Shown here piece by piece: positions 14,200 to 26,538 of a stretch of 27,584 nucleotides of DNA. Source of the DNA: a virus (Duplodnaviria; Heunggongvirae; Uroviricota; Caudoviricetes); IMG/VR virus record IMGVR_UViG_640753024_000006, positions 1 through 27,584 of that record, one strand, 5' to 3'. The first letter of the stretch is position 1. Each line of letters begins with the position of its first letter. Both the position numbers and the translations under genes were made by a program. Under the pieces are notes generated by a model. It was not told the DNA's origin, ran no database searches, and saw only the letters and a program-made list of their open reading frames with translations.

Positions 14200-14565
14200 A
14201 TGACTGAACGCATAGAATTTGTTTTGCCTTACCCGCCAACGGTGAACACTTACTGGCGACGTCGTGGCAGCACATATTTTGTATCAAAAGCCGGTGAGCG
14301 TTATCGCCGTGATGTGGCGCTTATTGTTCGCCAGCAGCGACTGAAATTAAACCTGTCCGGACGGCTGGTGATAAAGATTATTGCAGAGCCACCGGATAAA
14401 CGTCGTCGTGACCTGGACAATATCCTGAAAGCACCACTGGATGCGCTGACGCATGCCGGACTTCTCATAGACGACGAGCAGTTTGATGAAATCAATATTG
14501 TGCGCGGTCAGCTCGTTCCTGGTGGGCGGCTGGGGATAAAAATCACAGAACTGGAGTGCGCATGA
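14200..14565 (+). CDS. rusA: Holliday junction resolvase RusA
   Basis: 121 aa; VLPYPPTVNTYW... and D..DN..K..LDAL residues characteristic of RusA; nin-region position before Q. Confidence 0.85.
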   Translation: MTERIEFVLPYPPTVNTYWRRRGSTYFVSKAGERYRRDVALIVRQQRLKLNLSGRLVIKIIAEPPDKRRRDLDNILKAPLDALTHAGLLIDDEQFDEINIVRGQLVPGGRLGIKITELECA

Positions 14566-15251
14566 ATAACCAGTATTTACAGTTTGTGCGTGAGCAGCTC
14601 ATTATCGCCACCGCTGATTTGAGTGGGGCAACAAAAGGTCAGCTTGAAGCCTGGCAAGAGAATGCCATGTTCGATACAGGGCGTTACAGGCGTAAAAAAA
14701 TCCGGTACCGCGATGAAGTGACTGGAAAAATGATAACGCGGGATAATCCACCAATCCCGGGAAAGCAATCGCTGGCGAAAGGTTCATCAATTGCCCTGGT
14801 CAGTCCGGTTGAGTTTTCGACATCATCATGGCGACGCGCCGTTCTGTCTCTTGAAGAGCATCAGAAGGCGTGGGTGCTGTGGGTATACAGTGAAAATCCG
14901 AGTTGGGATTATCAGGTGGTCATTGCGAAATGGGCGTGGGATAAGTTTCAGGTGCATTTTGGCACCAGAAAAATTACAGGGAAAACGCTTGAGCGTCTGA
15001 AGAAATTAATCTGGCTGGCGGCGCAGGATGTCAGGGGGAGGATTACTGGGCGTGACGTCTACCAGCGACAGGAACTTGCCAGACTGTGTGGAGTTAAGCC
15101 TGACAACTGGAGCCATAATTATGCGAACTACTGGCGTGAGATGTGCGACATTTTTAAGAAACTCGATACAGAATCCTTGATTTGCACCGTGAAAATGAGA
15201 TCGCAACAAAAAGCGACCTTTTCACGACGAGATATTGCAAAAGTCAATTAA
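14562..15251 (+). CDS. Putative late-gene antiterminator Q (Qin QuuQ-like)
   Basis: Position after rusA and before a promoter plus short-leader terminator; ATGA overlap with the rusA stop; family assignment by position and memory only. Confidence 0.5.
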   Translation: MNNQYLQFVREQLIIATADLSGATKGQLEAWQENAMFDTGRYRRKKIRYRDEVTGKMITRDNPPIPGKQSLAKGSSIALVSPVEFSTSSWRRAVLSLEEHQKAWVLWVYSENPSWDYQVVIAKWAWDKFQVHFGTRKITGKTLERLKKLIWLAAQDVRGRITGRDVYQRQELARLCGVKPDNWSHNYANYWREMCDIFKKLDTESLICTVKMRSQQKATFSRRDIAKVN

Positions 15252-15297: not shown

Positions 15298-15322
15298 AAA
15301 CCCGCTTAAATGCGGGTTTTTT
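15298..15322 (+). terminator. tR'-like rho-independent terminator
   Basis: aacccgc-ttaaat-gcgggtt stem-loop followed by TTTTTT. Confidence 0.8.
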
Positions 15323-15395
15323 GCTTAACTCTGTGGACCTTTTTATCTGTAGTTGTAAGATATGGATATTCTTACAATTTAGGTCGGTGAGCTTA

Positions 15396-16160
15396 ATGGA
15401 AGAACAGCACGGTAATTACTTTATAAAACGAATTCAGTTGATTGGAAGGGGTGCATTTGGCTTTGTTGAACACGTTAAGGTTTACAACCTCAACAAGGGT
15501 GAATGTGGGGATTATGCTAGAAAGGTTTTAGCCCCCGAAAAACCAGAGCTTTTGGCGCAAATAGAGCAGTTTAGAAGGCGTTTTAAAAGGGAGGTCGTGT
15601 ATCAATCACATTGCGTACATAGCAATATTGTTCCTATTTATTTGTGCGATTTGTTTGCCGAGAATCCATGGTTCATTATGGATAAAGCAGAATGTGATCT
15701 TGAGCACGAAATAACGAACAACCTTCTTACAACAGATCAAAAAATTTCAATAGTGAAAATGGTATTAGATGGTGTAGCTCACATCCATGCGAAAGGCTAT
15801 TTACACAGAGATATAAAACCATTTAATGTCTTGCGATTTAGCGACGGAACATACAAGGTGTCTGATTTTGGTCTGGTAAAAGATACAAATCCCGAAGGGG
15901 ATACCACTAAATTGACCGAGATCGGTACCCGTATGGGAAGTACAAGATATATGGCTCCCGAGATTTTATATAATGCCGAGTATTCAGTTAAGACTGATGT
16001 TTATGCGGTGGGGCGGTTAATTGAGGACTTAAATTTAGATGATAAAAAAATAAAGCCTATCATAGCGAAGTGTACCAGGATGGATAAAGATGATAGATAT
16101 CAGACAATAGATGATGTGGCGTTTGATTTTGTGCATTCTTTTTTAAGGAGTGAGTCATGA
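15396..16160 (+). CDS. Eukaryotic-like (Hanks-type) Ser/Thr protein kinase, minimal kinase domain (255 aa)
   Basis: Subdomain motifs GRGAFGFV (Gly loop), ARK (Lys), HRDIKPFN (catalytic loop), DFG, MAPE (APE), DVYAVG; AT-rich; ATGA overlap with the downstream gene. Confidence 0.85.
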   Translation: MEEQHGNYFIKRIQLIGRGAFGFVEHVKVYNLNKGECGDYARKVLAPEKPELLAQIEQFRRRFKREVVYQSHCVHSNIVPIYLCDLFAENPWFIMDKAECDLEHEITNNLLTTDQKISIVKMVLDGVAHIHAKGYLHRDIKPFNVLRFSDGTYKVSDFGLVKDTNPEGDTTKLTEIGTRMGSTRYMAPEILYNAEYSVKTDVYAVGRLIEDLNLDDKKIKPIIAKCTRMDKDDRYQTIDDVAFDFVHSFLRSES

Positions 16161-16900
16161 TTCAGCTGATAGCGACTTCATCATTCTCGTATCCAAAAGA
16201 ACCAGGTAGGGTCAACGAAGATTCATTGCTTCCTCCCAAAATTGTAGGGGATGGCATCTTATTTGCCGTAGCTGATGGTGTAGGTTCATACACTGGTGCC
16301 AGTCAGGCTTCATCAATGGCAATTGCTGAACTTTCAGCATTGACAAGCTTATCTTTTGACACAGTTCCGGATGTATTTGATGAAGTTAAGCGAAAGGTTA
16401 TGTCGTTAGCTGATGTTAATGATGAGTTCGATAAAGCTGCTACTACACTTACGTTTTGTTATGTTTGTGATAGCGGAATTATTATTGGTCATATTGGTGA
16501 TTGTCGTTTGTATTGCATTGGAGAGAAGAAAGCATACCAATTGACGAAGGACGATACCAGGCATCAGATGCTAATTGATCAGAATATTTTTAAACCCAGA
16601 GATTTGAAGGATAAACCGGGCAAAAATATCTTAACGACGGCGATAGCCTCAAATGTTGATATGGAATACGACTGTGATTTTATCACATGGAAAGATTTAC
16701 CTAGTATTAACGGGGTATATCATCTGTGTATCATGTCTGATGGGGTTCATAACGTTTGGGAAAAACGCCCCAGATTTACATCAAATACGATGAGTAATAG
16801 TCAGAAGTTTTCTAATGGCATTTTGCGTCGTATAGAGAGAGCCGGACCTGATGATGACTTTTCTTTAGTAAGTATAATGGTGCGTGTGACGTCAGATTAG
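16157..16900 (+). CDS. PP2C-family (PPM) Ser/Thr protein phosphatase
   Basis: Motifs RVNEDS, FAVADGVGS (DGxG), HIGDCRLY (GDSR-like) and MSDGV; 247 aa; coupled to the kinase gene. Confidence 0.8.
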   Translation: MIQLIATSSFSYPKEPGRVNEDSLLPPKIVGDGILFAVADGVGSYTGASQASSMAIAELSALTSLSFDTVPDVFDEVKRKVMSLADVNDEFDKAATTLTFCYVCDSGIIIGHIGDCRLYCIGEKKAYQLTKDDTRHQMLIDQNIFKPRDLKDKPGKNILTTAIASNVDMEYDCDFITWKDLPSINGVYHLCIMSDGVHNVWEKRPRFTSNTMSNSQKFSNGILRRIERAGPDDDFSLVSIMVRVTSD

Positions 16901-18566: not shown

Positions 18567-18642
18567 GGCCCTTTAGCTCAGTGGTGAGAGCGAGCGACTC
18601 ATAATCGCCAGGTCGCTGGTTCAAATCCAGCAAGGGCCACCA
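18567..18642 (+). tRNA. tRNA with anticodon CAU (Ile2/lysidine type, ileX/ileZ-like, or Met)
   Basis: Cloverleaf folds by hand: 7-bp acceptor GGCCCTT/AAGGGCC, D-arm GCTC..GAGC, anticodon loop CTCATAA, T-loop GGTTCAAATCC, CCA end. Confidence 0.8.
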
Positions 18643-18643
18643 A

Positions 18644-18720
18644 CCGTCACCAGTTCATCAGGAAAGAGCGTCAACCCTTTAAGTTGAGTGTGCGAGGTTC
18701 GAGTCCCCGGTGGCGGTCCA
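18644..18720 (+). tRNA. Aberrant tRNA-like element (anticodon-loop CCTTTAA, apparent anticodon UUU with C at position 33); possibly a degenerate tRNA
   Basis: Acceptor CCGTCAC/GTGGCGG (one G-U), T-loop GGTTCGAGTCC and CCA end, but non-canonical C33 and a mismatched T-stem. Confidence 0.35.
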
Positions 18721-18722
18721 GT

Positions 18723-18798
<76 letters not shown>

Positions 18799-18801
18799 TA
18801 T

Positions 18802-18876
<75 letters not shown>

Positions 18877-19153
18877 GCATTTGCAACAAGCCTTATTGTA
18901 TTGCGGCACTGGTGTATTTTTTATTACGTGGGAGCAGGTTGTTTTGAAAAAGCATTCTGTTCTCTGGCTATAATTTGAGGCCAGGTGTAGCCTCAGTGCT
19001 GATTTTTTTACGACAGCAGAATGGTGCATTATCGGTGGAGATTTTGTATTTCCTGGCAGGGTCGGTGATGCATCATTCCGATGTTGTAAGCATCGCTCAG
19101 AATAACGTTGAGATTAATCGCGTACTAAGCAAAACCTGGAAATACATCCTTAA

Positions 19154-19178
19154 CCGCCGCACCAGGCGGTTTTTTTTA
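19154..19178 (+). terminator. Rho-independent terminator
   Basis: ccgcc-gcacca-ggcgg hairpin followed by eight T. Confidence 0.7.
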
Positions 19179-19303
19179 TTCATTTTTTTTTCATGGCTCG
19201 CTACGGCGGGCCTTTTTCATATCCTCGCCACACCCGGCGCATATCACATCAAATAACGCCGCGCAAAAGGCATCTGCGGGTGCCTTTGACGGGGTGTTTT
19301 TAC

Positions 19304-19327
19304 GGGCCGCTGGCGGCCCTTTTTTAT
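19304..19327 (+). terminator. Rho-independent terminator just upstream of the lysis genes
   Basis: gggccgc-tg-gcggccc hairpin followed by TTTTTT. Confidence 0.75.
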
Positions 19328-19344
19328 TTACAGGAGAAAAACGT

Positions 19345-19737
19345 ATGTCTGAACCCTTATCCGGTTCCGGCACGGCTGCGGCGCTCGGTGGGGCGACGGT
19401 GTACGGGCTGTTTACCGGAACGGATTTCGGGATTGTGTTTGGTGCGTTCGCCGGGGCGTTATTTGTGGCAACGATGCCGCAGGCGCTTTCAGTCTGGCGT
19501 GTGGTGGCGCATTTTCTGGTGTCGTTTATTGTCGGCGTGCTGGGAGCGCGTGTGCTGTCAGCCTGGATTGCATCAAAAACAGGGTATGACGGTACATCGG
19601 CAGATGCGCTGTGTGCGGTGCTGGTATCGGTGGTGTCGGTGAAGGTTCTGTCGTTCATCCACCAGCAGGATATTGCATCGCTGGTGTCCGGTGTGTTCTC
19701 CCGCCTGCGGGGCGGAGGTGGCGGCAATGTTAAGTAA
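19345..19737 (+). CDS. Putative holin (multi-pass membrane protein, 130 aa)
   Basis: AGGAG RBS before ATG 19345; several hydrophobic helices; first gene of a cluster ending in an endolysin. Confidence 0.5.
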   Translation: MSEPLSGSGTAAALGGATVYGLFTGTDFGIVFGAFAGALFVATMPQALSVWRVVAHFLVSFIVGVLGARVLSAWIASKTGYDGTSADALCAVLVSVVSVKVLSFIHQQDIASLVSGVFSRLRGGGGGNVK

Positions 19738-20002
19738 CCTTCCCGGATTGCTGAATGTGGCGTTATGCACGGTTATCGTGCTGACGCTCTTTTTTTATCG
19801 TCGTCGCGATTCCAGACATAAGCCGCTGATGTCATGGCTGGCCTGGCTGCTGATGCTGCTGTATGCCTTTGCACCACTCAGTTATCTGTGCGGTCGCCCG
19901 TTAGCGGCGAACTGGCTGGCGGTGGGGCTTAATCTGCTGTTCTGCGTGCTGGTGATACGTGCACGCGGGAACGTTTCAAAAATCCTTTCATTACGGAGGT
20001 GA
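19727..20002 (+). CDS. Second small membrane protein of the lysis cassette (holin/antiholin-like, 91 aa)
   Basis: GGAGG RBS; start overlaps the previous stop; 2-3 hydrophobic helices; stop abuts the endolysin start. Confidence 0.45.
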   Translation: MLSNLPGLLNVALCTVIVLTLFFYRRRDSRHKPLMSWLAWLLMLLYAFAPLSYLCGRPLAANWLAVGLNLLFCVLVIRARGNVSKILSLRR

Positions 20003-20004
20003 GT

Positions 20005-20382
20005 ATGCCCGGTAAATTCAGATTCAGTCGTCGAAGTGAGAAAAATCTGGAGGGCGTCAAACCACAGCTGGTTGCTGTTGTTCGCCGTGCGCTGGAGCTG
20101 ACGGAGGTTGACTTCGGTATTACGGAAGGCCTGCGCAGTAAGTATCGCCAGAAGCAGCTGGTCGCGGAAGGGAAAAGCCAGACCATGAACAGCCGCCACC
20201 TGACCGGTGATGCGGTGGATGTTGTGGCCTACATTGGTAGCCAGGTGTCATGGGACTGGCCTCTGTACGAGAAAATCGCGCAGGCATTTAAGCAGGCTGC
20301 CGCAGAGCTGGGAACTGCCATCGAATGGGGCGGGGACTGGAAAACACTGAAAGACGGGCCTCACTTTCAGTTGAAGCGCTAA
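20005..20382 (+). CDS. Endolysin, peptidase M15 family (L-alanyl-D-glutamate peptidase, T5 Lys-like)
   Basis: Zinc-ligand pattern H..D (SRHLTGDAVD) and C-terminal H (GPHFQL); overall resemblance to T5 endolysin as I recall it; GGAGG RBS. Confidence 0.8.
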   Translation: MPGKFRFSRRSEKNLEGVKPQLVAVVRRALELTEVDFGITEGLRSKYRQKQLVAEGKSQTMNSRHLTGDAVDVVAYIGSQVSWDWPLYEKIAQAFKQAAAELGTAIEWGGDWKTLKDGPHFQLKR

Positions 20383-20396
20383 TAACCAGGTGGTTT

Positions 20397-20579
20397 ATGA
20401 GCCGAAAACACTGGACACACAGAATGCCGCGAACGGCGGCGAAATGGGCACTGGTAGCGATACTGGTGCCTTTTTTCCTGGTGGGATGCGTTAGCCTGGA
20501 TAAGGTGCGCCAGCTTTTCGATACGGCCTCGCAGGTCTGCGAAATTGTCGAAAGTGCCAGGCAGTGTATGCAGAACTGA
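20397..20579 (+). CDS. Small lipoprotein (possible o-spanin/Rz1-like or Cor-like exclusion lipoprotein)
   Basis: AGGTGG RBS; signal peptide ending in lipobox LVGC; 60 aa; directly after the endolysin. Confidence 0.4.
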   Translation: MSRKHWTHRMPRTAAKWALVAILVPFFLVGCVSLDKVRQLFDTASQVCEIVESARQCMQN

Positions 20580-20666
20580 TCGCCTGTAAGAGCAGAATAT
20601 TGTTGAATCTAAATTTACTTTGAACAGTGGCCCGGATGGAAAGGGCATCTAAATAGGAGCAGAAAA

Positions 20667-20876
20667 ATGTTAACTGTAAAAGTCATGTCTCAAAATGGTG
20701 GGGAAGAGCTCCATTGCGGGCGTAGCATTGGCTATCATCCAGAGCAGCGGAGTATTGCCGTATCGGGAAAGGATGGGAAAGTCATTCTGAAAGATGGAGA
20801 TATTGCTTATGTAATGAACCAAAACGCTCAAATAATATCTGTTTATCGGCCCAATAATAGTCAGAAAAACATTTGA
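20667..20876 (+). CDS. Hypothetical small protein (69 aa), AT-rich moron
   Basis: AGGAG RBS before ATG 20667; no recognised motif. Confidence 0.45.
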   Translation: MLTVKVMSQNGGEELHCGRSIGYHPEQRSIAVSGKDGKVILKDGDIAYVMNQNAQIISVYRPNNSQKNI

Positions 20877-20999
20877 ATTTCGCAAGTCCAAAGTTCAGTG
20901 GTGATCGTTATCAACTAATTGAAATAACAAGCTTATGTTTGTGTAATTGGTGATATAGCATGTTAATGCTGAATATCAGCGTCAACATGGAGTTATACA

Positions 21000-21215
21000 A
21001 TGGTTTTTAAACACTATTACGTGAACAAAAATGCTCAGAGCAATGGCGATCATGAGGTGCATGCTGAGGAATGTTCATATCTTCCTGCTGTAGCTAACCG
21101 CGATTACCTTGGTTACTATAGTGATTGTTCTTCGGCGGTAACAGAGGCAAAGGCCAAAGGATATTCCCGGGTGAATGGTTGCTATTGGTGTGCCAATAAG
21201 TGCCACACGTCTTAA
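21000..21215 (+). CDS. Hypothetical small Cys-rich protein (71 aa)
   Basis: Six Cys including a C-Y-W-C pair; followed by a clean terminator at 21238-21257. Confidence 0.45.
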   Translation: MVFKHYYVNKNAQSNGDHEVHAEECSYLPAVANRDYLGYYSDCSSAVTEAKAKGYSRVNGCYWCANKCHTS

Positions 21216-21237
21216 TCAATTGTCAATAAACCATAAA

Positions 21238-21257
21238 GGCCGCTCTGCGGCCTTTTT
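21238..21257 (+). terminator. Rho-independent terminator
   Basis: ggccgc-tct-gcggcc hairpin followed by TTTTT. Confidence 0.75.
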
Positions 21258-21519
21258 CATGTTAAAAAAGATTGCGGCATTACAGCAGCCCTTCACACTG
21301 AGTGGCTGCGATAATGTGAGAAATAAAAAACCGGCAGGGGAAATCCATTGAAGATTTGCCGGTGGCAAAAAGATGGCCATGCTTTCAACCTTAGTCGCAG
21401 GGTTACGGAGTGCAACTACGAATGCTGCCGGTATATGGCTGAATGGCGTTTCAATGATGTACGTCATCTTATCTGTAAATGTTAATGATAAAAGCTCTCA
21501 TTTGTGCGGGTCCTTCCGG

Positions 21520-21724: not shown

Positions 21725-22279
21725 ATGAAGGTTAATAAAAAGAAACTTGCCGAAATTTTCAACGTGGATCCGCGAACGATTGAACGCTGGCAGTCTCAGG
21801 GACTCCCTTGCGTCTCCGGAGGTGGTAAGGGCGTTGAATCTGTATTTGATACCTCCATGGCAATTCAGTGGTATGCACAGAGGGAGGCTGATATCGAAAA
21901 TGAAAAACTCCGTAAAGAGGTTGAGGATTACAGAGCTGCCAGTGAGGCAGATCTCCAGCCTGGGACTATTGAGTACGAACGCCATCGACTTACGCGTGCG
22001 CAGGCCGACGCACAGGAGCTGAAGAATGCCAGAGACTCCGCAGAAGTGGTGGAAACCGCATTCTGTACTTTCGTGCTGTCACGGATCGCAGGTGAAATTG
22101 CCAGTATTCTTGACGGGATCCCTCTCTCGGTACAGCGGCGTTTTCCGGAACTGGAAAACCGACATGTTGATTTCCTGAAACGGGATATCATCAAAGCCAT
22201 GAACAAAGCAGCCGCGCTGGATGAACTGATATGGCTTACAGCCGTGTTTCGACTTTCTCCGGGGATTATCTCCGCGTAA
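21725..22279 (+). CDS. nu1: Terminase small subunit Nu1 homolog, C-terminus replaced at a deletion junction
   Basis: N-terminal ~170 aa closely resemble lambda Nu1 as I recall it (conserved ...[60 protein letters not shown]...); the last residues run into lom-derived DNA. Confidence 0.85.
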
Positions 22280-22476
22280 CTGACAACAAGGGGAAAACGC
22301 ACGACGTGCTGACCGGAAGTGATGACGGTCGCCACAGCAACACGTCTCTGGCGTGGGGGGCTGGCGTGCAGTTTAACCCGACCGAATCCGTGGCCATTGA
22401 TATTGCTTATGAAGGCTCCGGCAGTGGTGACTGGCGCACTGACGGTTTCATCGTGGGTGTCAGTTATAAATTCTGA
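22240..22476 (+). pseudogene. lom: 3' remnant of lom (Ail/Lom outer-membrane protein family)
   Basis: Translation [25 protein letters not shown]...DGFIVGVSYKF is a Lom/Ail C-terminal beta-barrel end (terminal F); no N-terminal part or signal peptide present. Confidence 0.8.
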
Positions 22477-22502
22477 TTAGCCAGGTAACACAGTGTTATG
22501 AC

Positions 22503-22529
22503 AGCCCGCCGGTTCAGGCGGGCTTTTTT
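22503..22529 (+). terminator. Rho-independent terminator between lom and stf
   Basis: agcccgcc-ggttca-ggcgggct hairpin followed by TTTTTT. Confidence 0.8.
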
Positions 22530-22540
22530 GTGGGGTGAAT

Positions 22541-25500
22541 ATGGCAGTAAAGATTTCAGGTGTACTGAAAGACGGCACAGGAAAACCGGTACAGAACTGC
22601 ACAATCCAGCTGAAAGCAAAACGTAACAGCACCACGGTGGTGGTGAACACACTGGCCTCAGAAAATCCGGATGAAGCCGGGCGTTACAGCATGGACGTTG
22701 AGTACGGTCAGTACAGCGTTATTCTGTTGGTGGAAGGCTTCCCGCCGTCACATGCCGGGACCATCACCGTGTATGAAGATTCCCGACCCGGTACGCTGAA
22801 TGATTTTCTCGGTGCCATGACGGAGGATGATGCCCGTCCTGAGGCACTGCGCCGTTTTGAACTGATGGTGGAAGAGGTGGCGCGTAACGCGTCCGCGGTG
22901 GCACAGAACACGGCAGCCGCGAAGAAGTCAGCCAGCGATGCCGGCACATCAGCCCGTGAGGCGGCAACCCATGCGACTGATGCTGCAGGCTCAGCACGCG
23001 CAGCCAGCACGTCAGCCGGACAGGCCGCGTCGTCGGCTCAGTCAGCGTCTTCCAGCGCAGGAACGGCATCAACAAAGGCTACTGAAGCATCAAAAAGTGC
23101 TGCTGCTGCAGAGTCCTCAAAAAGCGCGGCAGCTACCAGTGCCAGTGCCGCGAAAACGTCAGAAACGAATGCGGCAGCGTCACAAAAATCTGCAGCCACT
23201 TCTGCATCCGCCGCGACCACAAAGGCGTCAGAAGCTGCCACCTCAGCCCGGGATGCGGCGGCCTCAAAAGAGGCAGCGAAATCATCAGAAACGAACGCAT
23301 CATCAAGCGCCAGTAGTGCAGCTTCCTCGGCAACGGCGGCAGGAAATTCCGCGAAGGCGGCAAAGACGTCCGAGACGAACGCCAGGTCTTCTGAAACGGC
23401 AGCGGGACAGAGTGCCTCAGCTGCGGCAGGCTCAAAAACAGCGGCTGCGTCGTCTGCCAGCGCCGCGTCAACAAGTGCCGGGCAGGCCTCAGCCAGTGCC
23501 ACCGCCGCCGGAAAATCGGCAGAAAGCGCCGCATCATCCGCTTCAACAGCCACAACGAAGGCTGGCGAAGCCACTGAGCAGGCCAGCGCAGCAGCGAGGT
23601 CTGCTTCTGCAGCAAAAACCTCTGAAACAAATGCAAAGACTTCAGCAGACAATGCTGCTTCCTCTAAGGCGGCAGCCGCATCGTCCGCTGGTTCAGCGGC
23701 GTCATCGGCATCATCTGCGTCTGCTTCAAAAGATGAGGCGACCAGACAAGCGTCAGCAGCGAAAGGTAGTGCCACGACAGCAACAACGAAAGCATTAGAG
23801 GCGGCAGGCAGTGCGACGGCTGCATCTCAGAGCAAAGTTGCTGCTGAATCCGCGGCAACGCGCGCCGAGACAGCGGCAAAACGGGCAGAGGATATTGCAT
23901 CCGCCGTGGCGCTTGAGGATGCGAGCACGACGAAAAAGGGGATAGTCCAGCTCAGCAGTGCGACCAACAGTACGTCTGAAACGCTGGCGGCAACGCCAAA
24001 GGCAGTAAAATCAGCCTATGACAATGCAGAGAAACGTCTGCAGAAAGACCAGAACGGCGCTGATATACCCGATAAGGGACGCTTCCTGAACAACATTAAC
24101 GCGGTCAGTAAAACAGACTTTGCTGATAAGCGTGGTATGCGTTATGTGCGGGTTAACGCTCCTGCAGGTGCAACATCTGGAAAATATTACCCTGTTGTTG
24201 TTATGCGTTCTGCTGGCTCAGTAAGCGAACTGGCATCAAGGGTCATTATCACCACGGCAACGCGAACCGCAGGCGATCCGATGAATAACTGCGAGTTTAA
24301 CGGATTTGTTATGCCTGGTGGCTGGACTGACAGGGGGCGTTATGCTTATGGAATGTTCTGGCAATATCAAAACAATGAACGAGCCATCCACTCAATAATG
24401 ATGAGTAATAAGGGCGATGATTTGCGCTCTGTGTTCTATGTTGATGGCGCTGCTTTCCCTGTTTTTGCGTTTATCGAAGATGGCCTGTCAATATCCGCAC
24501 CTGGTGCTGATCTCGTTGTTAATGATACGACCTATAAGTTTGGTGCAACAAATCCAGCGACTGAATGTATCGCGGCGGACGTTATCCTTGATTTTAAGAG
24601 TGGGCGTGGTTTTTATGAGTCCCATTCGTTAATCGTTAACGATAACTTGTCGTGCAAAAAACTTTTTGCCACAGACGAAATTGTAGCGCGTGGTGGTAAT
24701 CAGATTCGAATGATAGGTGGGGAGTATGGTGCATTATGGCGTAATGATGGCGCTAAAACTTACCTGCTGCTTACCAATCAAGGTGATGTTTATGGTGGCT
24801 GGAATACATTAAGACCGTTTGCTATTAATAACGCAACCGGCGAACTGGTTATTGGAACCAAACTGTCCGCAAGTCTGAACGGTAATGCATTAACAGCAAC
24901 AAAGCTGCAAACGCCAAGACTGGTTTCTGGTGTTGAGTTTGATGGTTCCAGAGATATTACTTTAACCGCTGCGCATGTGGCTGCTTTTGCCAGAAGGGCA
25001 ACGGATACATATGCCGATGCGGATGGTGGCGTTCCCTGGAATGCCGAATCAGGCGCTTACAATGTCACCCGCTCTGGCGACACCTATATTCTGGTTAACT
25101 TCTATACCGGAGTCGGAAGTTGCCGGACCCTGCAGATGAAGGCGCATTACAGAAATGGTGGTCTGTTCTACCGTTCCTCAAGAGATGGCTATGGTTTTGA
25201 GGAAGACTGGGCAGAAGTTTATACCTCGAAAAATCTTCCACCAGAAAGCTACCCAGTCGGCGCACCAATCCCGTGGCCATCAGATACCGTTCCGTCTGGT
25301 TATGCCCTGATGCAGGGGCAGACTTTTGACAAATCTGCTTACCCGAAACTTGCAGCCGCTTATCCGTCAGGTGTGATCCCTGATATGCGTGGCTGGACGA
25401 TTAAGGGCAAACCTGCCAGTGGTCGGGCCGTATTGTCTCAGGAACAGGACGGCATTAAATCGCACACCCACAGCGCCAGCGCATCCAGTACGGATTTGGG

Positions 25501-25954
25501 GACGAAAACCACATCGTCGTTTGATTACGGCACTAAATCCACGAATAACACCGGGGCGCATACGCACAGTCTGAGTGGCTCTACGGGGTCTGCCGGTGTT
25601 CATACTCATGGTAATGGTATTCGTTGGCCAGGAGGCGGCGGTTCTGCGTTATCATTTTATGATGGCGGTGGGTTCACTTATGTCCAGAATTCACAGTATC
25701 AAGTAAGCCCGGAGACTTCTTCCTATAGATCGTATTATCAACGTATTCAGACACAGTCAGCAGGTGCTCATACCCACTCGCTGTCTGGTACTGCAGCAAG
25801 TTCTGGCGCACATGCACATACTGTAGGTATTGGTGCGCATACGCACTCCGTTGCGATTGGTTCACATGGACACACCATCACCGTTAACGCTGCGGGTAAC
25901 GCGGAAAACACCGTCAAAAACATCGCATTTAACTATATTGTGAGGCTTGCATAA
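22541..25954 (+). CDS. stf: Side tail fibre protein Stf (long Ala/Ser-rich repeat shaft, C-terminal HxH-repeat tip)
   Basis: N-terminus [26 protein letters not shown]... matches lambda Stf as I recall it; ~350-aa Ala/Ser/Thr-rich low-complexity region with KxSETNA repeats; C-terminal GAHTHS/HxH repeats typical of fibre tips. Confidence 0.9.
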
Positions 25955-26538
25955 TGGCATTCAGAATGAGTGAACAAGCACGGACCATAAAAATTTATAA
26001 TCTGCTGGCCGGAACTAATGAATTTATTGGTGAAGGTGACGCATATATTCCGCCTCATACAGGTCTGCCAGCAAACAGTACCGATATTGCACCACCAGAT
26101 ATTCCTGCTGGCTTTGTGGCTGTTTTCAACAGTGATGAGGCATCGTGGCATCTCGTTGAAGACCATCGGGGTAAAACGGTTTATGACGTAGCGTCAGGGG
26201 ACGAGTTATTTATTTCTGAACTCGGTCCGTTACCGGAAAATGTTACCTGGTTATCGCCGGAAGGGGAGTTTCAGAAGTGGAACGGCACAGCCTGGGTGAA
26301 GGATACGGAAGCAGAAAAACTGTTCCGGATCCGGGAGGCGGAAGAAACAAAAAACAACCTGATGCAGGTAGCCAGTGAGCATATTGCGCCGCTTCAGGAT
26401 GCTGCAGATCTGGAAATTGCAACGGAGGAAGAAACCTCATTGCTGGAAGCCTGGAAAAAGTATCGGGTGTTGCTGAACCGTGTTGATACATCAACTGCAC
26501 CTGATATTGAGTGGCCTACGAACCCTGTCAGGGAGTAA
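25954..26538 (+). CDS. tfa: Tail fibre assembly chaperone Tfa
   Basis: 194 aa; start overlaps the stf stop (TAATG); conserved Tfa C-terminal region (...[25 protein letters not shown]...). Confidence 0.85.

Follow-up and report, generated by a model that had tools for sequence, protein, structure and literature searches.

The DNA analyzed in this study comprises 27,584 nucleotides (positions 1 to 27,584 of the IMG/VR record IMGVR_UViG_640753024_000006), is called the window throughout, and represents a lambdoid prophage of Escherichia coli. Between positions 19345 and 20579 it carries a lysis cassette of four co-directional, tightly packed open reading frames (ORFs) on the plus strand, which is 100% identical to that of several human isolates of the enterotoxigenic E. 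coli (ETEC) type. The last of the four genes codes for a short lipoprotein, whose signal region resembles that of outer-membrane spanins (o-spanins), and no gene for an inner-membrane spanin (i-spanin) was found to accompany it. The origin and the possible function of this lipoprotein are considered here. The features of the cassette are as follows:

19345–19737, plus strand: holin-family membrane protein 1, 130 amino acids; PF16931 Phage_holin_8 (2.6e-22, 79.7 bits), PHROG 198 holin (4e-42)
19727–20002, plus strand: holin-family membrane protein 2, 91 amino acids; PF05449 Phage_holin_3_7 (1.8e-21, 76.4 bits), PHROG 217 holin (2e-37)
20005–20382, plus strand: M15 endolysin, 125 amino acids; PF13539 Peptidase_M15_4 (1.5e-12), PHROG 465 endolysin (5.6e-75)
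20388–20393, plus strand: Shine-Dalgarno-like AGGTGG upstream of the lipoprotein ATG (20397)
20397–20579, plus strand: prolipoprotein gene, 60 amino acids; PHROG 7528, function unknown (1e-35)
20446–20477, plus strand: terminator-like 11-bp hairpin with T-run inside the signal-peptide coding region (terminator scan)

The two small membrane proteins both match holin families above the gathering score in a hidden Markov model (HMM) search, a check proposed in the initial annotation, which had described them as overlapping genes in front of the endolysin. Their size, multiple transmembrane domains (TMDs) and position upstream of the endolysin also fit holins. Protein 1, named "putative holin" in RefSeq, shows 3–4 hydrophobic segments in a Kyte-Doolittle scan. 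Protein 2 shows three, and its ATG overlaps the end of the first gene by 11 nt.

The endolysin matches PF13539 with 48.3 bits at a cut-off of 25, and the nearest relatives with a solved structure in the PDB are two L-Ala-D-Glu endopeptidases of the phage type, Serratia ChiX (5opz, 9e-43) and the peptidase of phage T5 (T5 Lys; 2mxz, 1.6e-23). The residues of the zinc-binding and catalytic motif are intact (H65, D72, D117, and H120 in SRH65LTGDAVD72 and DGPH120FQL). In the form H65-x6-D72/D117-x2-H120 they align with SRHLTGHAVD and DGPHFQL of ChiX and with SKHITGDAID of T5 Lys, and they are invariant in a 5-sequence alignment. No signal sequence was found in the endolysin. By its family matches and motifs, the enzyme is a cytoplasmic M15 L-alanyl-D-glutamate endopeptidase of the T5 Lys/ChiX type. 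It had been annotated from the start as an M15 peptidase rather than a transglycosylase of the lambda R type, an assignment that the loss of the catalytic residues would have overturned and that the alignment bears out.

The lipoprotein gene starts 14 nt past the endolysin stop, and in a comparison of junctions a GGTGGT element just before its ATG was common to the related loci. Codons 1–30 (20397–20486) are predicted to encode a signal peptide with five lysines or arginines in the n-region and the h-region WALVAILVPFF, residues 14–32 being the sole hydrophobic segment of the protein. The lipobox LVGC (L28-V29-G30-C31) is located at 20478–20489, so that the size, the lipobox and the end coordinate of the gene agree with what had been noted before. 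The predicted mature peptide has 30 residues (CVSLDKVRQLFDTASQVCEIVESARQCMQN, 20487–20576), two of which are further cysteines. Lipoproteins without aspartate at position +2 are sorted to the outer membrane. As the +2 residue here is valine, the mature lipopeptide is predicted to sit in the outer membrane, with its lipid anchor in the inner leaflet.

The gene is maintained by selection. Across 68 distinct alleles, pN/pS is 0.23 for the whole lipoprotein and 0.175 for the mature part, in comparison to 0.28–0.31 for the holins. In a 24-sequence alignment G30, C31, C48, and C57 are invariant, and the three cysteines as well as the mature length of about 30 residues are retained in relatives with less than 50% identity. 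The first methionine is also invariant, whereas M10, the start given in SpaninDB, varies. These values mark a real gene under purifying selection and not a fortuitous ORF. The family of the PHROG 7528 type is narrow, consisting of 130 clusters at 90% identity, and all its named members belong to the Enterobacteriaceae. A remote-homology search of 1.84 billion cluster representatives returned 24 clusters at 50%, all of them similar short lipoproteins, and no link to a larger family. No match to the lipoprotein was found in Pfam, NCBIfam or PADLOC.

To describe the genomic context, 162 IMG/VR loci were collected with the lipoprotein or the endolysin as seed, and the lipoprotein was present in all of them. 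In 76 loci it abuts an M15 endolysin, the arrangement of the window; about 50 loci have at least one small ORF between the endolysin and the lipoprotein (PHROG 4493/1115/4906, unknown), with a hydrophobic segment near its C-terminus; and in 27 a GH108 muramidase takes the place of the M15 endolysin. In distant members (loci L166, L171, L173, and L175) the lipoprotein follows a holin of the lambda S type (PF05106) and an M15 or GH108 enzyme, and in a Mu-like phage with a Mu portal (L206) it overlaps the endolysin stop. Its place at the end of the cassette is constant, whichever of the two holin types and two endolysin types come before it. The virion modules of the carriers are unrelated, with a sheathed tail in phiP27, a lambda-like head and tail in the prophage of strain 503025, Baseplate_J in L165, a Dit-like module in L166 and Mu genes in L206. 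Thus, with such varied virion modules, holins and endolysins, the lysis cassette is the only constant partner of the lipoprotein.

The same holin pair was also observed beside toxin genes in three loci. In SerU-LTIIb (L163), the LT-IIb genes lie directly 3′ of a GH108 endolysin, at the usual place of the lipoprotein. In phiSTEC1575-Stx2k (L164), Stx2k and a remnant class II holin are located upstream of the cassette, and in L208, genes for pertussis-like S1 and S2S3 are located upstream.

A first hint at the origin of the lipoprotein was its tblastn similarity to Rz1 of the phages SfV and SfII. In BLASTP it matches SfV Rz1 with 3e-8 over the N-terminal 35 residues (SRKHWTHRMPRTAAKW vs. SRSHWSHREPRKISKW), and SfV Rz1 in turn matches PHROG 7528 at 4e-5. 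An hhalign comparison of the family with the alignment "Rz1-like lysis system protein LysC" (PF23793) gave 96.8% probability and E = 2e-10 in the signal region. This agreement indicates that the signal region of the lipoprotein is homologous to that of o-spanins of the LysC/Rz1 type. In SfV, the reading frame of the matching part of Rz1 is +1 relative to Rz, and an open but decayed frame of the window (20390–20494) stands in the same relation to the lipoprotein gene. This alternative frame is best read as a decayed remnant of the Rz frame. As an overlapping gene it was rejected, because in distant relatives the changes preserve the character of the residues in the lipoprotein frame and alter it radically in the other one.

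The lipoprotein occupies the Rz/Rz1 slot as the last gene of the cassette. The small membrane ORF that abuts Rz/Rz1 in the Shiga toxin (Stx) phage GER2 ends in RWW, and in L127, L064, and L057 a small membrane ORF of this kind abuts the lipoprotein, via the junction GGTGGTGATATG. Small ORFs of 37–50 amino acids with a C-terminal hydrophobic segment (PHROG 4493/1115/3246/4906) were observed in L127, L064, L044, L057, and L125 and at 2130–2282 of L169. They stand between the endolysin and either the lipoprotein or Rz/Rz1, and this junction often joins their stop directly to the following ATG. None of them is present in the window. GER2 itself carries, about 760 bp 3′ of Rz/Rz1 (L169, 3488–3681), a remnant of the lipoprotein gene that is frameshifted and has no annotation. 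This remnant was also found in 43 E. coli genomes including HUSEC2011 and belongs to one Stx-prophage lineage.

A scan with the endolysin alignment, limited to one genome per species, yielded 28 loci. Downstream of the M15 endolysin, an ordinary i-spanin whose gene embeds or overlaps that of an o-spanin is present in Serratia (species other than S. marcescens), Erwinia, Yersinia, Enterobacter, Buttiauxella, and Xenorhabdus, and only Citrobacter braakii has the lone lipoprotein there. The simplest history would be that a pair of the LysB/LysC type lost lysB together with the long proline-rich periplasmic part of lysC.

A partner of the lipoprotein was looked for in several ways. With lambda Rz and SfV Rz as tblastn queries no match was obtained in the window or in the 162 related loci, and when the window and the whole phiP27 genome were scanned for type-II membrane ORFs and additional ORFs with a lipobox, no candidate partner emerged. 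The initial annotation had already seen no Rz-like i-spanin with an embedded Rz1, and these searches support it. Three ORFs of the window were considered and rejected. The ORF 18996–19256, a RefSeq hypothetical protein spanning two terminator-like hairpins, owes its single "TMD" to the translated T-runs of these terminators, lies outside the conserved cassette and has no Pfam match; it is probably not a gene. The ORFs 20667–20876 and 21000–21215 are AT-rich, lack any hydrophobic segment and are confined to a subset of the loci.

The only published partner is that of the Stx2e phage phiP27, which was classified as having a "separated" two-component spanin in which each subunit forms a singleton family and whose combined periplasmic length of 62 residues is the shortest (Kongari et al., 2018; PMC6139136). 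The o-spanin given there and in SpaninDB is the lipoprotein of the PHROG 7528 type, with a periplasmic domain of 30 residues. The proposed i-spanin (20348–20542 in phiP27, 4289–4483 in L002) is a 64-amino-acid ORF with a TTG start and no PHROG match. It is antisense to a 90-amino-acid ORF (L002, 4273–4545, minus strand) that matches PHROG 36812 at 5e-20, and it sits in an insert of about 430 bp between endolysin and lipoprotein, which is found in at most 7 of the 162 loci and is absent from the window. The published i-spanin is very probably a false positive, and the SpaninDB entry is probably wrong.

The hairpin inside the signal-peptide coding region (20446–20477) has a fold z-score of −2.69, with 96% of cells paired across 19 variants, and is kept in nearly all of 39 sequence variants as well as in the distant relative L165. 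The pS value is 0.11 in the hairpin region and 0.24 in the mature part. Its covariation does not exceed that of shuffles (164/500), and conservation of the structure is inseparable from amino acid constraint and relatedness, so that a functional RNA hairpin or terminator is here a tentative reading and was not adopted.

The late region in which the cassette is embedded contains the following features:

14556–15251: Q gene, upstream of the cassette
19152–19171, 19195–19212, and 19304–19319 (span 19152–19328), plus strand: three terminator-like hairpins with T-runs, downstream of the tRNA cluster and in front of the first holin gene (terminator scan)

Between Q and the cassette lie, besides these hairpins, a Ser/Thr kinase and PP2C pair, a DNA methylase and four tRNA genes. 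No sigma-70-like promoter was found in the scanned region 18850–21300. Given the three upstream hairpins, and by analogy with lambdoid late operons, the lysis cassette should be transcribed only by antiterminated, Q-modified polymerase. The GC content is 0.54–0.58 across the cassette, including the lipoprotein gene (0.54), and drops to 0.35–0.40 directly 3′ of it. There, the two AT-rich small ORFs of unknown function, 20667–20876 (PHROG 3909) and 21000–21215 (PHROG 4298, Cys-rich), are closed by a bidirectional terminator-like hairpin at 21235–21255. They behave like morons, being present in a subset of the related loci.

The Ser/Thr protein kinase and the PP2C phosphatase are encoded at 15321–16900, downstream of Q. 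The kinase matches the PADLOC models mad6, PD-T4-6, and Stk2 (down to 3e-40) and may, based on these matches, be a prophage-borne anti-phage kinase. The four tRNA genes were predicted by ARAGORN at 18567–18876 and read Met(CAT), Lys(TTT), Thr(TGT), and Gly(TCC). In the identical region of strain 503025, RefSeq lists three tRNAs, assigns the CAT one to tRNA-Ile and omits Lys(TTT) at 18644–18720.

The prophage of the window is defective. The Nu1 small terminase gene (21725–22279) is directly followed by a 1139-amino-acid side tail fibre and a tail-fibre assembly gene (21725–26538 in total), no large terminase, head or tail genes were found in this region, and the region of similarity to the intact 503025 prophage extends no further than about 22030. 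In the partial LT-IIb prophage SerU-LTIIb, the nu1-terS-stf order is the same.

The cassette was compared with known systems. The cassette of phiP27 (genes L28–L30 plus an unannotated lipoprotein) consists of the same four genes with about 90% DNA identity and a lipoprotein that is 88% identical, and it differs from the window by the insert with the proposed i-spanin ORF. LysB/LysC of P2 and Rz/Rz1 of SfV and SfII (PF23793) share with it the n-region pattern SR.HW.HR.PR...KW, the hydrophobic core, the lipobox, the terminal position in the cassette and the frame relation. In contrast, the lipoprotein of the window has no LysB or Rz gene beside it and a mature part of 30 instead of about 73 residues, and unlike LysC/Rz1 it is not proline-rich, is predicted to be helical and contains two cysteines in the mature part instead of one. 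Lambda Rz/Rz1 is alike in having an outer-membrane lipoprotein with a periplasmic cysteine, encoded last in a cassette of the S-R-Rz type, and the lipoprotein occupies the junction at which GER2 carries Rz/Rz1; the window, however, lacks an embedding gene, an i-spanin and sequence similarity to lambda Rz. The unimolecular spanin gp11 of T1 is likewise a single gene product with an N-terminal lipobox, encoded at the end of the lysis cassette. It has a C-terminal TMD and a long beta-rich periplasmic domain, whereas the lipoprotein has one hydrophobic segment and 29 residues past the cysteine, and hence lacks the C-terminal TMD that defines a unimolecular spanin. The chiWXYZ genes of Serratia marcescens (type 10 secretion) encode ChiX, a close homologue of the endolysin, and the order of holin, M15 peptidase and lipoprotein ChiY is that of relatives such as L166. 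ChiZ, an i-spanin-like protein with an N-terminal TMD, has no equivalent in the window; the comparison with ChiY covered gene order.

Taken together, the lipoprotein is somewhat favored to be derived from an o-spanin and to carry out the outer-membrane step of lysis with no dedicated partner. Once the late genes have been transcribed under the control of Q, the holin or holins would permeabilize the inner membrane, one of the two holin-family proteins acting as the holin and the other as its partner or antiholin, and the endopeptidase would be released and would then cut the stem peptides of the peptidoglycan. In the third step, the lipoprotein would disrupt the outer membrane as a shrunken o-spanin without a partner of the LysB/Rz type. 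It would act alone, probably as a disulfide-linked amphipathic helical oligomer via its two conserved cysteines, as is suggested by these cysteines and by hydrophobic residues that recur every 3–4 positions in the mature peptide. Alternatively, it would act with a partner which is not recognizable as a spanin. This reading corresponds to one of the two put forward in the initial annotation, an o-spanin without a recognizable partner, which gains from the N-terminal homology, the Rz/Rz1 slot and the listing in SpaninDB. In the GER2 lineage, where Rz/Rz1 is present, the frameshift of the lipoprotein copy agrees with it as well. The other one, a Cor-like exclusion lipoprotein, is disfavored by the linkage to the lysis cassette, the missing promoter-like site and the upstream hairpins.

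Several points weigh against a partnerless o-spanin derivative. The homology to o-spanins is limited to the signal peptide and lipobox. For the mature peptide, hhalign against LysC gave E = 0.36–0.7 and a reversed control scored as well, and a resemblance to the C-terminal part of LysC seen by eye (SLD...Q.C.I..G.R) was rejected on the same control. The HMM search for spanin families proposed in the initial annotation gave no match of the lipoprotein to PF23793, and the mature peptide lacks the proline-rich character of Rz1. The AlphaFold2 model is a single helix of low confidence (pLDDT 66), and a tether of 29 residues, which as a helix would measure about 4 nm, is too short for the distance to the inner membrane; the canonical spanin mechanism requires an i-spanin. 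The disruptin gp28 of phiKT is, like the lipoprotein, a small envelope-active phage polypeptide, but it is cationic and unlipidated, whereas the mature peptide of the window has a net charge of −1 and follows a lipobox. The frameshifted copy beside Rz/Rz1 is a single evolutionary event in one lineage. About 13% of phages have no identifiable spanin (Kongari et al., 2018; PMC6139136), so that the outer-membrane step may be unassisted here as well, and the copy of the window may never be used because its prophage is defective. The function proposed for the lipoprotein is deduced from sequence and gene context.

The lipoprotein could instead be a genuine two-component o-spanin with an inner-membrane partner that goes unrecognized, such as one of the holin-family proteins, a host protein, the i-spanin of another resident prophage or, in relatives, the abutting small proteins with a C-terminal TMD of PHROG 4493/1115. 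This is judged unlikely. The o-spanin-like signal region and the position in the spanin slot agree with it, the two conserved cysteines resemble the disulfide-dependent logic of Rz1, and non-canonical topologies could act as i-spanins (Kongari et al., 2018; PMC6139136). The stop of a small membrane ORF abuts the start of the lipoprotein in about 50 related loci, but such ORFs are missing from the window and from the 76 loci of the adjacent type, they also stand before ordinary Rz/Rz1 in GER2, and their N-terminal tails have only about 16 residues. That two unrelated holin types accompany the lipoprotein makes a holin-specific partnership unlikely, and the one partner that has been published, at 20348–20542 of phiP27, is the TTG ORF without PHROG match described above, confined to at most 7 of 162 loci.

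A role outside lysis is decidedly less probable. The lipoprotein would then block a receptor in the manner of Cor/Llp, for superinfection exclusion or for protecting progeny from debris, or act as a Bor-like fitness factor. Llp of T5 is a small phage lipoprotein with a disulfide that blocks the receptor, and lambda bor adjoins Rz/Rz1. The lack of a family annotation for the lipoprotein gene and its retention in a defective prophage would also agree with such a role. Llp and Cor, which share with the lipoprotein the character of small envelope-active phage polypeptides, go together with receptor-binding genes and are produced early or in the lysogenic state. The lipoprotein of the window, in contrast, is linked to lysis genes, and this linkage holds while tail and receptor modules differ (phiP27, 503025, L165, L166, and L206). 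It is encoded on the same strand as the endolysin, 14 nt past its stop or overlapping it (L206), behind the hairpins and with no promoter-like site of its own; it has no Pfam or PADLOC match, and its GC content is like that of the cassette and unlike that of the AT-rich morons downstream. Least probable of all, and very improbable, is a functionless relic of LysB/LysC (Rz/Rz1) left by deletion of the i-spanin in phages that lyse without help at the outer membrane. Detectable similarity to LysC is confined to the signal region, the Rz-frame remnant has decayed, frameshifted copies of the lipoprotein exist, and phages without spanins are known (Kongari et al., 2018; PMC6139136), all as expected for a relic. 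However, the mature peptide is under purifying selection (pN/pS 0.175), neither the lipobox nor the two cysteines vary, the length is kept below 50% identity, and the lipoprotein was recruited repeatedly into different cassette types.

Within the favored reading of an o-spanin derivative that serves lysis, a more far-reaching version is tentatively put forward and considered more doubtful than probable. The lipoprotein would represent a third kind of phage outer-membrane lysis factor, a disulfide-bonded, lipid-anchored helical peptide of about 29 residues, which arose from a LysC/Rz1 o-spanin minus the i-spanin and the proline-rich linker and which breaches or destabilizes the outer membrane alone, with no partner in the inner membrane. 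In a still more exotic variant, the uncleaved prolipoprotein would serve as inner-membrane arm and the mature form as outer-membrane arm. The phiP27 cassette type and the label of the lipoprotein as an o-spanin are already in the literature; new are the homology of its signal region to LysC, its description as a modular lipoprotein without partner and the revision of the i-spanin assignment published for phiP27.

Spanins are thought to be necessary for the final step of lysis in Gram-negative hosts, which raises the question of how phages without spanins achieve it (Kongari et al., 2018; PMC6139136). Here, a conserved lipoprotein under selection occupies the spanin slot without an i-spanin in hundreds of prophages of E. 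coli, Salmonella, and Citrobacter, and the SpaninDB entry for phiP27 is corrected. With a gene of 183 bp, an E. coli host and the existing platform for lambda Rz/Rz1 complementation, the system offers a clean test case, and its interest would rise sharply if the lipoprotein alone suffices for the disruption of the outer membrane. The cassette type accompanies toxin-converting prophages, namely those for Stx2e (phiP27), Stx2k, LT-IIb, and a pertussis-like toxin (L208). As toxin release depends on lysis, the route by which the outer membrane is opened bears on the release of these toxins.

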